Assembly (NCBI GenBank): GCA_963708185.1
Contig: OY970195.1
Span: forward strand, 224,001-288,000
From: Candidatus Peregrinibacteria bacterium
GTDB taxonomy: Bacteria > Patescibacteriota > Gracilibacteria > UBA1369
DNA length: 64,000 nucleotides
Reading direction: 5' to 3'
The notes beneath the pieces were generated by a model. That model worked only from the letters and a program-made list of their open reading frames with translations. It had not been told where the DNA came from and searched no databases. The number at the start of each line of letters is the position of its first letter. The stretch's first letter is position 1. Made by a program: the position numbers and the translations under genes. Positions 7,268-13,255 of this stretch are shown here, piece by piece.

Positions 7268-9025
7268 ATGGAGGAAGGAAAATTTAAAAGTTACAGGGAG
7301 ACCGAAGGGCTGGATTCATTGTTCATGGAAATCCAGGGATATTTTGACCATCTTTATCAATCGGTAAGGGAGAGGCGCAGTGTTGAAAGTTTTGCGGGCA
7401 TGGATATGTCTCAGGATAATAAAAAACTCACAGAGATTCTGGATAAACTCAATCTTGGATTGGACCCGCTCCGCAAATCCGAAGGAGAGGTCCGAGAAGA
7501 GCACATCATCGTCTTTATTGACGCTGTTCTTGAACTGCTGACTTTTATCGGCAATAAAGGGTCCATAAAGGACCCGCTGAAAGCAAAAATCGATACAATG
7601 CTTTACAAGGAAAACGAGGTTTTTGGTCGAAGAAATCAGCGGCGAGATAAGTTAATGCTCCTATTATCTGTCGCCGGTACCTCGTTGGAGGTTTGTTCCT
7701 TCAATATGGTCCATACCGCTATTTTTGCTCTCAATGCTTACCTCACGGGAGGAATGGCCCGTTCCGATCAAGCAATAACCAGCGATCCGCGGATGGTAGG
7801 TATTGCACGGACTCAGTTCGTGGATACTTTGGTCGAAAAAACCGGTAGGACTCCGCCGCAAATGTTCGCATATATCAACAGGGTCAGGACTTATCTTTTG
7901 GCTGCCGGACTCACTTTCATGACGGTTAATTCTTTCAGAAGCACGGCGTCGCATCATACGCTGGGAGAGGTTATCAGTTCTGTTTCTCATCCTTCTCACG
8001 CCAAAATTGATGCTCGTGAGCGAACTGAATTCCTTTTAGAATTTGCGCTTTCCATTATCCGCGTGTTTCTCTTAACATCCATGGCGAGGCGTTTAGGTGA
8101 TATCGTCAGAACTTCCTCCCTTGTTGATTATGCCGCTTACCAGCGTTTTAAATTGGGAGAATTTGAGTCGGAAAGGCTCGATTCATCCCAACTCAAGAAT
8201 TTAAAGAAACTTTTTTTAGAGTTACAGGCGGCGTTGAAGCGTATGAGCAAGGATGACGGTTATGATCCCACGCCGCTCATCGAAAAAATTAAGGAAGGGT
8301 TTGAGGCCGTAGTCCAAGGCCAAACCGTTTATGTAAAAGATTTTTTGAAATCAAGCAGAAGGATTGTCCATGAAGATTACAAACGGAAAGTCGTTCTTAG
8401 AAACACGGGAAAAAGCGATTCAGCCATACGACAAGGTACCAGTAAAAAGATTGTGAACGTCGCCCGGTTTGAATTGCCGCTCATCAGAAAAAAGCTTTCA
8501 CGTGAGGAAAGAAAAGAACTTTATGCCAGAAATAAAGCGGTTGCAAAAATGCATGATCACGACCAGCCGGTGGAACCGGTCATTCCGGAAAAAAATAGTG
8601 GCGATTTTTCCCAGGTTTGTTACCAGCCCACAAACGATGGGGCAGAAACGATCAGTGGACGAGAACAGATGATACGGAATATCGATTTCCACAGGACATT
8701 GGATGGCATCCAGTTCCGGAAATTTTTAAAGGCAATGTCATTTCAACAAACAGAAGGAGGCAAAGGAAGCCATGAAAAGTATGCTCTTGAAATCGGCGGT
8801 GGAACGCTTATTGTTGTCCTTTCACGCAAATTCGACCGTTTTAATGATAATATTATTAAGAATGATATCTTGAGAAAACCGCCATATCTGAATCCGGAAT
8901 GGGTTTACTGGCAATATTGTGAACAGTTTTCCTTCCCCGAATCCATAAGCGCTTACCAGAAGCTTTTTGGAAAAGAGTTTGATTCCAAGAACCAGCCATC
9001 TCCATTGAAACAGGGAACTGAATAA
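7268..9025 (+). CDS. Large hypothetical protein with C-terminal HicA-like domain
   Basis: 585-aa ORF; C-terminal 'FRKFLKAMSFQQTEGGKGSHEKYALEIGGGTLIVVL' resembles the HicA GSH motif; TTGACA promoter at 7205. Confidence 0.65.
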   Translation: MEEGKFKSYRETEGLDSLFMEIQGYFDHLYQSVRERRSVESFAGMDMSQDNKKLTEILDKLNLGLDPLRKSEGEVREEHIIVFIDAVLELLTFIGNKGSIKDPLKAKIDTMLYKENEVFGRRNQRRDKLMLLLSVAGTSLEVCSFNMVHTAIFALNAYLTGGMARSDQAITSDPRMVGIARTQFVDTLVEKTGRTPPQMFAYINRVRTYLLAAGLTFMTVNSFRSTASHHTLGEVISSVSHPSHAKIDARERTEFLLEFALSIIRVFLLTSMARRLGDIVRTSSLVDYAAYQRFKLGEFESERLDSSQLKNLKKLFLELQAALKRMSKDDGYDPTPLIEKIKEGFEAVVQGQTVYVKDFLKSSRRIVHEDYKRKVVLRNTGKSDSAIRQGTSKKIVNVARFELPLIRKKLSREERKELYARNKAVAKMHDHDQPVEPVIPEKNSGDFSQVCYQPTNDGAETISGREQMIRNIDFHRTLDGIQFRKFLKAMSFQQTEGGKGSHEKYALEIGGGTLIVVLSRKFDRFNDNIIKNDILRKPPYLNPEWVYWQYCEQFSFPESISAYQKLFGKEFDSKNQPSPLKQGTE

Positions 9026-9071
9026 AAAATTGGCTCCCCCGACTGGGCTCGAACCAGTGACCTACCGGTTA

Positions 9072-9582
9072 CACGTATCTCTATGTTTCCATAAAGGGTG
9101 GACTATATCTTCACCTTTCCCGCTTATGGCGGGATTCAGGTGCGTCTGTATCTAGTCTCTACGGTGCCCCTCACATTTTCGAGGGTTCCCACGGTATTGG
9201 CTTGGTCGTGTCGCGACGTTAGCTTTCACCGTTATCCAGACGAGTTTCATCCCCGATTTCGCGGGGAAGCTGCGTTATGCCATTTTCGACCTCACGGTGA
9301 CAATTCGCACAAAGTAAGACACAGATATCGAGTTCCTTTTGTACCTTTTTCCAACTTCTTGTGTATCCCTTTGCAGAGATGCCAAAATTTTTTTCGTTGA
9401 GAAAATGGTGGAACTCGAGTGCTTCGATGCACGTATTGTAGCCGCAAAGCTGACACTGGCCGCCTTTATACTCAAGTGCTTGTTGCCGGAGCAGTTTCCT
9501 GCGTTTGGCTACAGCTTGTTTCAAGTATTCAGCGCGGTCGGCATAGGATCTTTTATCTTTCATTGAGAGAAGATAGTGTTTC
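9072..9582 (-). mobile_element. Group I self-splicing intron (511 nt) in the tRNA-Asn anticodon, between positions 35 and 36
   Basis: 5' exon ends in U and the intron ends in G. IGS GCAGC (9273-9269) pairs with exon GCUGU, giving a U.G pair. P3 CGTCTG/CAGACG; P4 ACGGTG/TACCGT; P7 GACTA/TAGTC; S motif AAGATATAGTCC; P9 CTTTATG-GAAA-CATAGAG. Confidence 0.93.
9219..9563 (-). CDS. Intron-encoded HNH homing endonuclease (114 aa)
   Basis: 'KGGQCQLCGY...ALEFHH...ELDICVLLCANCHREV': CxxC...HH...CxNCH Zn-finger HNH; ATG about 20 nt inside the intron. Confidence 0.88.
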   Translation of the reverse strand: MKDKRSYADRAEYLKQAVAKRRKLLRQQALEYKGGQCQLCGYNTCIEALEFHHFLNEKNFGISAKGYTRSWKKVQKELDICVLLCANCHREVENGITQLPREIGDETRLDNGES

Positions 9583-9623
9583 ACAGCCGGTTGCTCTACC
9601 ACTGAGCTACAGGGGAATGCCGG

Positions 9624-9718
9624 GTTTTCAATAGGCGCGGAACGGCGCCGAACAAGATGGAAAATCGGCTCCAAGAATGGAGCACGGATACTATAGCCAA
9701 GCTGCAGGTAATTTTCAA
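9624..9718 (-). promoter_or_regulatory. tRNA-Asn promoter and boxA-like leader motif
   Basis: TTGAAA (9718-9713), 17 bp, TATAGT (9695-9690); leader GCGCCG..GCGCCTATTGAAAAC ending at 9624. Confidence 0.6.
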
Positions 9719-9725
9719 CGCAATT

Positions 9726-10973
9726 TTATGTGCTGACGAATTTCCAGATTTCGCGACAGACGATCTGGTCCGGACGGTCGTAGATGAGGCCATAACGCTG
9801 GTAGACTTTGAGTCCGAATTTTTTGCTGATGTCCCCCGGAATGATCGGTTCGGCCTTGAAGCCGAGCTTGGCGATATCCTCCACAAGGTTTTCAAGGAAG
9901 AAATAGCGGTCTTTGCGTTTGTAGGCGAGCAGGCTGATCACTACGGGAGTGTCTTTCTTGATGAGGGGTTTGATCGCTTTAAAGAACCGGAACAGGGTTT
10001 CGCGGATGTTGCTGAAGGTTTTTCGCATATTTTCCGGGATGGGGAACTGGCTGACCGGAGGTCCAAGGTAGGATTCAGTGACGATGATGTCCGGAGTTTT
10101 GGGGAGATCTTTTGAGGTAATCTGGGTGGCGTCTTTGGCAAAAAGTTTGGGCTGTGAAGCAATGATGTTGTATTTCTGGAGCATCCAGTCGATGTTTTTT
10201 TGCGCTTTTGCGAGCGCTTCCTGGCTGATGTCGGAACCCATGACTTTATATCCCATGAGCAGCCCTTCGGTGAGGATGGTCCCTACGCCGGTGAAGGGAT
10301 CGTACAGCAGTTTGTCGGTTTTGACGGGTTCCTCCATTGCGGTGACGCCGGAGAGGTTGATCATGATCTGGGCCAGTTTTGGCGGCAGCATACCGAGTCG
10401 GGGATCTCTTCCCGGGCGGTCGTAGTCGCGTTGGCTGTATTTTTCAATATCCTGGAGGGCGACGGTTCGACCGTAAAAATAGTGGTGATTGCCCTGGATA
10501 ATGCTGATATGAGCCCCATCACGGATGAGTTTTTCACCATGGATGGCGGCGTTTTCCACGTTCTTGAAGTTTTTGTTGACGAAGCGGCTTTTGAGGCCGG
10601 CTTTGACGAGCTCTTTTTTGAGCTGAATTAAGGATTTTTTTAAAATTTCTTCATGTCTTTCTGTAAAACTGAAGATGCTTACTCCGTAATTGAGCTTGTT
10701 CGGTCTTCCCTGAAACGTCGTTGTCAGGAATTCGCCCACTGCCGGGACGATGGCAGTTTTTTCTTTCTTTGATTGGGTGAAAACTTCCGCAATGCTGATT
10801 GTTCCGCCAAGACGGTCCAGGCTCGATTGCGGGTTGGTCAGCGGATGGGGCAGCTCGGCGATGAGCGCTTCGGGGACGATATCGATAATTTTTGCTTCCC
10901 GGCCCAGCACGCTGCAGAGTTCCGCAATGGAAAGTTGGTGCTTGCGCCCGAGAATGAATGCGTACATTGCCAT
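9726..10973 (-). CDS. Trm11/UPF0020-like (THUMP + SAM) RNA methyltransferase
   Basis: 'RDYDRPGRDPRLGMLPPKLAQIMINL', 'LYDPFTGVGTILTEG', 'GSDIS', 'IVTESYLGP'. Confidence 0.8.
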   Translation of the reverse strand: MAMYAFILGRKHQLSIAELCSVLGREAKIIDIVPEALIAELPHPLTNPQSSLDRLGGTISIAEVFTQSKKEKTAIVPAVGEFLTTTFQGRPNKLNYGVSIFSFTERHEEILKKSLIQLKKELVKAGLKSRFVNKNFKNVENAAIHGEKLIRDGAHISIIQGNHHYFYGRTVALQDIEKYSQRDYDRPGRDPRLGMLPPKLAQIMINLSGVTAMEEPVKTDKLLYDPFTGVGTILTEGLLMGYKVMGSDISQEALAKAQKNIDWMLQKYNIIASQPKLFAKDATQITSKDLPKTPDIIVTESYLGPPVSQFPIPENMRKTFSNIRETLFRFFKAIKPLIKKDTPVVISLLAYKRKDRYFFLENLVEDIAKLGFKAEPIIPGDISKKFGLKVYQRYGLIYDRPDQIVCREIWKFVST

Positions 10974-13180: not shown

Positions 13181-13255
13181 TGGGGAATCGCCAAGTGGTA
13201 AGGCACCGCTCTCTGGAAGCGGCATTCGGGGGTTCGAATCCCTCTTCCCCAGCCA
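13181..13255 (+). tRNA. trnQ: tRNA-Gln(CTG)
   Basis: TGGGGAA acceptor stem, anticodon arm CCGCT-CTCTGGA-AGCGG, GGTTCGAATCC T-arm, CCA end. Confidence 0.95.

Follow-up and report, generated by a model that had tools for sequence, protein, structure and literature searches.

We analysed a window of 64,000 nucleotides (nt) from a Candidatus Peregrinibacteria bacterium (assembly GCA_963708185.1, contig OY970195.1, positions 224,001 to 288,000; coordinates below refer to this window unless another record is named) and found on its minus strand a tRNA-Asn(GUU) gene split in two parts, 9616..9583 and 9071..9031, by an insert of 511 nt (9582..9072). To judge from its sequence, the insert is a group I intron with a complete core, and it carries an open reading frame (ORF) for an HNH-type endonuclease. 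The evidence makes it very likely that a Peribacteria-like organism of the Patescibacteria (candidate phyla radiation, CPR) relies on this locus as its single, essential tRNA-Asn(GUU) gene, which a mobile group I intron interrupts between U35 and U36. A previous sequence-only reading of this DNA had proposed such a gene at 9031-9616 with an intron at 9072-9582; these coordinates proved exact, on the minus strand. Below, G, C, L and X numbers are our handles for genomes, contigs, loci and sequencing runs, respectively.

The split tRNA-Asn gene and its splice junction

The locus is composed of three parts:

9583..9616, minus strand: tRNA-Asn exon 1, 34 nt, tRNA nucleotides 1-35 (sequence, ARAGORN on the joined exons, identity with intron-less alleles)
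9031..9071, minus strand: tRNA-Asn exon 2, 41 nt, starting with UAACCGG (same evidence)
9072..9582, minus strand: group I intron, 511 nt, from G9582 to the terminal omega-G9072 (Rfam model RF00028 and intron-less alleles)

Exon 1 contains the 5′ strand of the acceptor stem, the D arm, the 5′ strand of the anticodon stem and the loop bases C32, U33, G34 and U35; its 3′ end reads ...CCGGCUGU, the last bases being CUGU. Exon 2 provides U36, A37 and A38, the 3′ strand of the anticodon stem, the variable loop, the T arm, the 3′ strand of the acceptor stem and the discriminator G, and is closed by a genome-encoded CCA (9033..9031). When the exons were joined by script, ARAGORN returned a 75-nt tRNA-Asn(gtt) with a regular cloverleaf, and the tRNA was recovered only once 9582..9072 had been removed. 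Furthermore, the search for intron-less alleles that the sequence-only reading had suggested was successful: the joined exons equal, with 0 mismatches, the uninterrupted tRNA-Asn in the four related genomes checked (L010-L013, from G008, G005, G001 and G015). The junction is thereby pinned to CUGU|UAA, with the cut falling between nucleotides 35 and 36 of the anticodon, as had been predicted.

The unspliced locus was detected neither by ARAGORN with default settings, in the window and in the whole genome, nor by the Rfam tRNA model at its gathering score. The expectation that scanners would miss the gene, leaving the genome seemingly without tRNA-Asn, was thus borne out. The genome is closed (1,437,033 bp, 49.8% G+C, 99% complete), and default ARAGORN finds in it 45 tRNAs for 19 amino acids, and no tRNA-Asn among the 45. 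The split gene being the sole tRNA-Asn of the genome, its splicing must work.

A group I ribozyme supported by compensatory changes

The anatomy of the intron, from the 5′ splice site to the terminal G, is the following:

9582..9588, minus strand: P1 5′ strand, formed by exon bases G31 C32 U33 G34 U35 (the preceding base tentatively G30) and intron G+1
9268..9274, minus strand: internal guide sequence (IGS; C GCAG CU), the P1 3′ strand, pairing with 9582..9588
9250..9267, minus strand: P2 hairpin (double-sided changes in 6 of 6 pairs among 22 sequences; single-sequence fold)
9163..9242, minus strand: P3 5′ strand (9242..9237) and P4-P5-P5a-P6-P6a domain (9232..9163) (covariation, fold)
9101..9157, minus strand: P7 (9157..9153 with 9105..9101), P3 3′ strand (9148..9143), P8 (9142..9112) and J8/7 (covariation, Rfam consensus)
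9072..9099, minus strand: P9.0 (A9099-U9073 and C9098-G9074), P9 hairpin with GAAA loop (9096..9079) and omega-G9072 (covariation)

The intron starts with GAAAC and finishes with ...ACGUG. RF00028 matched 9326..9079 over the full model (1-253; 45.7 bits, E 3.2e-10), with no further match in the genome, and scored 36.5-100.5 bits on homologous introns at the same site, with more than 50 bits in 9 of the 15 matched loci. The P1 helix comprises 7 bp and, on the sequence, places a U9583.G9273 wobble at the 5′ splice site. The catalytic-core strings AGAGACUA and GAUAUAGUCC agree with the RF00028 consensus.

Then, we built an alignment of 22 homologous introns, running from the guide sequence through the 3′ end of the tRNA, and evaluated on it 12 helices, the P3/P7 pseudoknot included, for a total of 56 pairs. 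Overall, 88.1% of 1225 cells were paired, compared to 33.6-43.9% when the partners were slid; changes on both sides occurred in 41 of the 56 pairs, and 0 of 500 shuffles matched any of the observed measures. As the window sequence was the source of the structure, the comparison with the slid versions is biased in its favour; the compensatory changes are independent of that. P4 was 100% paired, with compensatory change in 5/6 pairs, and changes of this kind were found in 5/6 pairs of P3 (double changes), 4/5 of P8 and 6/7 of P9. At the intron ends, the pair between +1 and IGS-1 covaries (G-C, A-U, C-G), as does the second pair of P9.0 (C-G, A-U and U-A in 18, 3 and 1 sequences). The guide GCAGC and the UG ahead of the 3′ exon are invariant in all 22 introns; so is P7, which is hence uninformative for covariation. 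The T-arm pairs of the tRNA covary in the same set and served as internal positive control.

RNAalifold independently recovered P2, P4, P5, P5a, P6, P7, P9 and a P9.0-like pairing. Coherently, the minimum free energy fold of 9280..9072 alone contained P2-P6, P8 and P9, with a z-score of −4.14 and 0 of 200 shuffles as stable. The core elements named by the sequence-only reading (U.G pair, P3, P4, P7, P8, P9 and terminal G) are therefore supported by RF00028, covariation and fold, and P2, P5, P6 and the covarying P9.0 can be added to them. Two other Rfam results were discarded as chance matches: HPnc0260, which is antisense of the tRNA 3′ half, and CRISPR-DR, which falls on the P2 hairpin.

A putative HNH gene inside the P1 loop

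9219..9563, minus strand: putative HNH endonuclease ORF, 114 amino acids (aa) plus stop, ATG at intron nt 20 (PHROG HNH families, invariant residues)

The 114-aa ORF is the inner part of a listed ORF of 151 aa and is single-copy in the genome. Its HNH core sits between the two P1 strands, i.e., in the P1 loop; in ORF-less relatives, the guide sequence lies 8-22 nt past the 5′ splice site. The gene does not end where the ribozyme begins: codons 97-114 and the stop are read from the IGS, P2, P3, P4 and P5, an overlap of 57 nt. Within this overlap, the IGS together with the first part of P2 encodes the residues T-Q-L-P; the UAA stop (9221..9219) falls in the conserved GAAAGCUAA of J4/5-P5. A tail of the form [IV]-[TV]-Q-L-P is seen in most intron-borne HNH copies, and the copies labelled as Omnitrophota use another frame there.

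That the ORF is of the HNH (beta-beta-alpha-metal) type, as proposed from the sequence, is favoured by two PHROG families annotated as HNH endonuclease (E 4.8e-26 and 5.4e-22) and by nine residues invariant in 25/25 homologues (C37, C40, H52, H53, C81, C85, N87, C88 and H89, in the arrangement CxxC...HH...CxxCH); mean column identity across the 25 homologues is 61%. An AlphaFold model based on the same alignment had a mean predicted local distance difference test (pLDDT) value of 79.1, with residues 102-114 below 50. The top rows of a Foldseek search with this model were all HNH nucleases (Gme HNH nicking endonuclease, the Cas9 HNH domain, Cap5 and T4 endonuclease VII), at weak scores. The best relative of solved structure, the HNH domain of a group II intron maturase, was not significant (E 0.0055). 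A match of the protein to the NCBIfam FwdF model (18.7 bits vs a cut-off of 375) was dismissed as noise due to cysteine spacing.

Distribution among relatives and across the phylum

In a set of 41 close relatives, the window's own genome included, we found the intron with its ORF in G000, G024 (87% identical), G002 (84%, same genus) and G007 (76%), and in G023, G018 and G017 the same site is occupied by an intron of 222-237 nt that lacks the ORF. The exon halves abut in 21/41 genomes, including G001 and G004 of the same genus; four of these were confirmed by ARAGORN. Of 25 genomes in the window's family, 7 have the intron. The closest loci are titled Candidatus Peregrinibacteria and Peribacteria in their records.

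A scan with the HNH protein, with one genome per species, returned 19 loci; in 16 of them, tRNA-Asn is interrupted at this same position. The other three are L020, L030 (Bacillus timonensis, with a longer free-standing protein) and L032. The titles of the 16 records comprise Peribacteria, Gracilibacteria, Staskawiczbacteria, Paceibacteria, “Patescibacteria group,” Omnitrophota (three) and “Gammaproteobacteria” (three). The last two labels are the titles' own and are unconfirmed, a kinship look-up having given no result; the genomes behind five of these loci (L022, L023, L026, L028 and L029, with L027 left out) measure 0.8-1.5 Mb.

Furthermore, we surveyed an even sample of 151 genomes of the phylum with RF00028 (E <= 1e-5) and tested the calls of ARAGORN with introns allowed (-i) for cuts with a U before the intron and a terminal G. 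The counts are lower bounds, the filters being strict, and cover only RF00028 matches that ARAGORN -i placed in tRNAs. RF00028 matched in 57/151 genomes. A tRNA-Asn cut CUGU|...G|UAA was found in 20 sampled genomes, or 21/151 counting the window's own; 12 of these introns are 502-594 nt long and contain the HNH gene, and 9 are ORF-less and 195-305 nt long. The Patescibacteria tRNA-Asn introns at 35/36 that the sequence-only reading mentioned are thus borne out by our own survey. tRNA-Asn is the commonest split tRNA of the sample. Next come tRNA-Phe(GAA) and CAU-anticodon tRNAs, both cut after U33 and with eight cases each, and a single tRNA-Tyr(GUA); the 151 genomes yielded no split tRNA-His or tRNA-Asp.

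The split tRNA-Phe genes are at L035, L038, L060, L063, L071, L086, L089 and L092, and the split CAU tRNAs at L047, L066, L070, L075, L077, L079, L084 and L099; several of these contain or adjoin more distant HNH homologues (33-42% identity). Clusters of RF00028 matches within a few kb were also present (G101:C1:141273-148192, four matches; G179:C1:444945-446915, three; G113:C4:40571-42579, three). These are probably multiply interrupted rRNA genes, and we assume that many of the matches outside the tRNAs placed by ARAGORN lie in rRNA genes.

Probable mobility of the intron and states of the endonuclease gene

Then, we compared the orthologous locus within the genus: G001 and G004 are intron-less, and G002 is intron-bearing. 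The methyltransferase-like gene upstream of the tRNA shares with its counterparts 76.4% identity over 882 nt in G002, 76.1% over 829 nt in the intron-less G001 and 70.6% over 632 nt in G024. The intron-bearing gene itself is 84.1% identical in G002 and 86.8% in G024. The intron is therefore more alike than its flanks, and most alike in the more distant G024, which fits lateral movement; stronger constraint on the intron could add to this excess of similarity. We infer mobility of the intron from three sequence comparisons: presence and absence, identity of intron versus flanks, and occurrence at the same site in metagenome-assembled genomes (MAGs) labelled as other phyla.

The endonuclease gene was found in several positions. 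A free-standing homologue lies just downstream of an ORF-less tRNA-Asn intron at L007 (G018) and L025, and just upstream at L101 and L028. The L007 protein, located past a terminator-like hairpin, is 96 aa long and 77% identical over residues 1-94. At L041 (G116:C1:288185-291479), two HNH copies lie on one strand, one about 38 nt upstream of tRNA-Asn and the other in its intron. Among the 12 ORF-less loci found without protein bait, for which 1-1.5 kb were fetched, two have an HNH neighbour (L007 and L101). In L007 and L101, the free-standing protein has nothing beyond the HNH core; in L025, L028 and L041 it continues in a short tail faintly like the one read from the intron, which would suggest, as far as sequence can tell, an escape from an intron. 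In a Peribacteria MAG, the intron-borne HNH ORF (L017:1501-1842) is broken by two in-frame stops, of which one falls in the conserved EYKGG stretch; the endonuclease gene seems to be decaying there, within an intron that is intact in other respects.

A related intron in tRNA-Tyr

An ORF-less intron with the same guide GCAG was found after CUGU in class II tRNA genes at three loci: L009:1349-1638 (G010, same family), L120 (G001:C15) and L096 (G058:C4). Spliced at CUGU|AAA, these match the tRNA-Tyr(GUA) of the window's genome at 81, 77 and 68 of 86 nt, respectively, and its tRNA-Ser genes at no more than 64. G001, which belongs to the window's genus, has an intron-less tRNA-Asn and a split tRNA-Tyr; the window's genome has the reverse.

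In a tree of 36 intron cores, obtained by a quick search on a short alignment, L009, the only tRNA-Tyr intron included, was nested in the clade of all Peribacteria tRNA-Asn introns. The Shimodaira-Hasegawa-like approximate likelihood ratio test (SH-aLRT) gave 100 to the two main clades and 96 to the inner group with L009. We take the kinship of the tRNA-Asn and tRNA-Tyr introns as a lead, not as proof, of a probable jump to a second tRNA.

Proposed mechanism

On the basis of the anatomy described above, splicing may proceed as follows. The guide C-GCAG-CU (9274..9268) would pair with G31-C32-U33-G34-U35 and the first intron base, with the U35.G wobble marking the 5′ splice site, where a free guanosine would attack. 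The terminal G9072, placed by P9.0, would then replace the guanosine, and the exons would be ligated to give the loop CUGUUAA. The HNH gene could be translated from the precursor or from the excised intron. As the end of the ORF is the ribozyme's own IGS-P5 region, ribosome and folded ribozyme should exclude each other on one molecule. The distribution suggests that the most probable target of the HNH enzyme is the intron-less tRNA-Asn gene, which it would nick or cut at the insertion site or close to it, and that repair copies the intron in; homing into intron-less alleles would follow DNA exchange between cells.

Evaluation of alternative explanations

The locus could also be read as a tRNA-Thr(UGU) gene by shifting the intron two bases in the 5′ direction (CU|...G|UGUAA). 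This cut likewise has a U before the intron, a G at the intron end and a 7-nt loop; indeed, ARAGORN -i reports the locus as tRNA-Thr(tgt) i(33,511) and, among the 20 homologous loci sampled from the phylum, calls tRNA-Thr at the 11 where both cuts are possible. We rejected it and grant it almost no probability: the intron-less alleles have the loop CUGUUAA rather than CUUGUAA, the guide G of P1 wobbles with U35 while U33 pairs with an A, the Asn cut is the only possible one in 9/20 of the sampled homologues, and the genome already has a tRNA-Thr(tgt), at 1117888 of the genome, with no other tRNA-Asn, so that Asn would go unserved. The call is an annotation trap in its own right, since ARAGORN with introns allowed shifts the intron two bases 5′ in the window and in the 11 loci; the split tRNA-Tyr genes are likewise reported by it as tRNA-Ser(tga).

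Several results weigh against an active ribozyme or an active endonuclease. The RF00028 check named by the sequence-only reading did give a match, but its 45.7 bits are 4.3 under the gathering score of 50. A search of sequencing runs gave shares of at most 0.11 of words, and in the reads examined (RNA runs X15, X16 and X20; DNA run X4), the exact 9071/9583 joint occurred in X20 but also in X4; with intron-less alleles having identical exons, the joint is no evidence of splicing. Contigs of two RNA libraries (X15 record 1 and X16 record 11) span exon 2 and run into about 100 nt of a relative's intron; they could derive from such precursors or from DNA contaminating the libraries, and are at most a weak hint. 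On the side of the protein, Pfam HNH (PF01844) scored 16.7 bits, below its cut-off of 21.4, Foldseek of the model against the PDB gave no match with E <= 0.001 (best 0.042), no Shine-Dalgarno-like sequence is evident ahead of the ATG, and the L017 gene is interrupted by stops. One could thus suppose a dead relic intron in a pseudogene, with Asn decoding served otherwise, as the RNA-run joint is uninformative, RF00028 stays below its gathering score and homing-endonuclease ORFs decay in relatives. We hold this to be very improbable, because the locus is the sole tRNA-Asn of a closed and nearly complete genome, its core helices are all intact and kept in the family by compensatory change, its exons are 100% identical to functional-looking alleles, and its catalytic-core strings agree with the consensus. 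It is also conceivable that the ribozyme splices and the HNH protein no longer homes, being inactive or having a maturase-like role in intron folding or an ordinary nuclease role: its cleavage activity is putative, the overlap with the ribozyme core could limit translation, a ribosome-binding site is not obvious and the Pfam score is weak. This we judge unlikely, given the metal-binding and catalytic residues invariant in all 25 homologues at 61% mean column identity, the presence and absence of the intron within the genus at the orthologous locus, and the intron being more similar than its flanks. Moreover, ORF-less introns of the same family exist, and the ribozyme is thus apparently independent of the protein. 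A spliced tRNA-Asn(GUU) with a mobile HNH-bearing intron remains by far the preferred explanation.

Relation to known systems

The classical bacterial tRNA introns of tRNA-Leu(UAA) in cyanobacteria, tRNA-Ile(CAU) in Azoarcus and tRNA-Arg(CCU) in Agrobacterium (subgroup IC3) are likewise small anticodon-loop ribozymes. They share with the intron described here the U-1 wobble in a short P1 made of anticodon-loop bases, the terminal G and a sporadic distribution. We presume a likeness to the Azoarcus and Anabaena introns (IC3) in particular, and the GAAA-type loops in L2 and L9 presumably resemble those of Azoarcus. Unlike the classical introns, this one is hosted by tRNA-Asn(GUU), cuts after U35 and has an ORF, placed in the P1 loop. 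The four classical sites, named in the tRNAscan-SE 2.0 paper and in Williams 2020 (bioRxiv 10.1101/2020.01.27.920355), do not include Asn. The latter work added 17 new tRNA/site classes for a total of 21, at many anticodon-loop positions, and, for metagenomic assemblies of unnamed phyla, gave a figure of 0.49 split tRNA genes per genome. In its nomenclature, our intron would be “Asn.4Ug,” and the tRNA-Asn site is likely already among its classes. Its text is silent on HNH genes, their position and free-standing copies.

The tRNA-fMet intron of Synechocystis PCC 6803 (I-Ssp6803I) is also an anticodon-loop intron that encodes a homing endonuclease directed against the tRNA gene; here, the enzyme is of the HNH type, and the tRNA and the site are different. 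We take I-Ssp6803I to belong to the PD-(D/E)XK family. The phage enzymes I-HmuI, I-BasI and I-TwoI are, like the one described here, HNH enzymes from bacterial-type group I introns. These are presumably larger and located in phage protein-coding genes. Collaborative homing (the phage psbA intron with F-CphI; T4 mobE with I-TevIII) offers a further parallel, as there too ORF-less introns occur with a free-standing endonuclease gene by the same target, next to intron-borne relatives. The present case differs in that it involves cellular bacterial tRNA genes instead of phage protein genes. In its available text, Hausner 2014 (PMC3984707) describes the collaborative homing model (the subject also of PMC2790892) and cites work on the I-Ssp6803I system, on translation interfering with splicing and on I-BasI; “Asn” is not mentioned there.

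In the available text of Lui et al. 2021 (PMC8172020), one sentence states that some CPR tRNAs have group I introns, and that of Mohanta et al. 2017 (PMC5733544) deals with other tRNAs and very short inserts. In the literature within reach, which excluded most subscription journals and all supplements, we found no text naming a group I intron in a bacterial tRNA-Asn, none stating the Patescibacteria cases, and none on an HNH gene in P1, its overlap with the core, free-standing copies or the Asn/Tyr pair. The intron typifies a class that is frequent but sparsely documented.

Genomic neighbourhood

On the plus strand, a 585-aa ORF (7268-9025) without Pfam or NCBIfam match converges on the tRNA gene; the DNA on this side was conserved in 0 of the 10 relatives compared. 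On the minus strand, a 415-aa ORF (9726-10973) lies directly upstream of the tRNA. Its matches to methyltransferase models are weak (UPF0020/RMKL-like, 2.3e-06; TIGR01177, 2.7e-14, far below cut-off), and it adjoins tRNA-Asn in G002, G001 and G024 as well. The only tRNA of the window detected by the scanners is an ordinary tRNA-Gln(ctg) on the plus strand (13181-13255). A promoter and terminator scan found sites no more frequent than in shuffles, and its one promoter-like site is a candidate only:

9690..9718, minus strand: promoter-like TTGAAA-17-TATAGT, about 70 nt upstream of the tRNA 5′ end (one site vs a shuffle mean of 1.2)

Significance

For annotation pipelines, the finding means that this genome and about one in seven of the sampled genomes of the phylum are reported without tRNA-Asn or with a tRNA-Thr in its place. 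Such miscalls distort completeness checks and the reading of codon usage and genetic code in reduced bacteria. For the organism, it means that a cell with a 1.4-Mb genome can decode none of its asparagine codons without an RNA enzyme.

The single intron is of less interest in itself than as an entry to a pattern across the family. The relatives show all the stages of a mobile intron at one site: empty, bare ribozyme, neighbouring endonuclease gene, gene inside and decaying gene. The family is thus a convenient natural system for studying how endonuclease genes and ribozymes combine. Tentatively, and with less than even confidence, we suggest that a single lineage, with its guide GCAG aimed at C32-U33-G34-U35 of GUN tRNAs, may have moved between tRNA-Asn and tRNA-Tyr, that the HNH gene may have repeatedly shifted between a free-standing position and the P1 loop, and that the dual-coded end would make translation and splicing exclusive. 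If this is true, the family would offer a natural series of stages of the formation or decay of mobile introns, in the cellular tRNA genes of a whole phylum.

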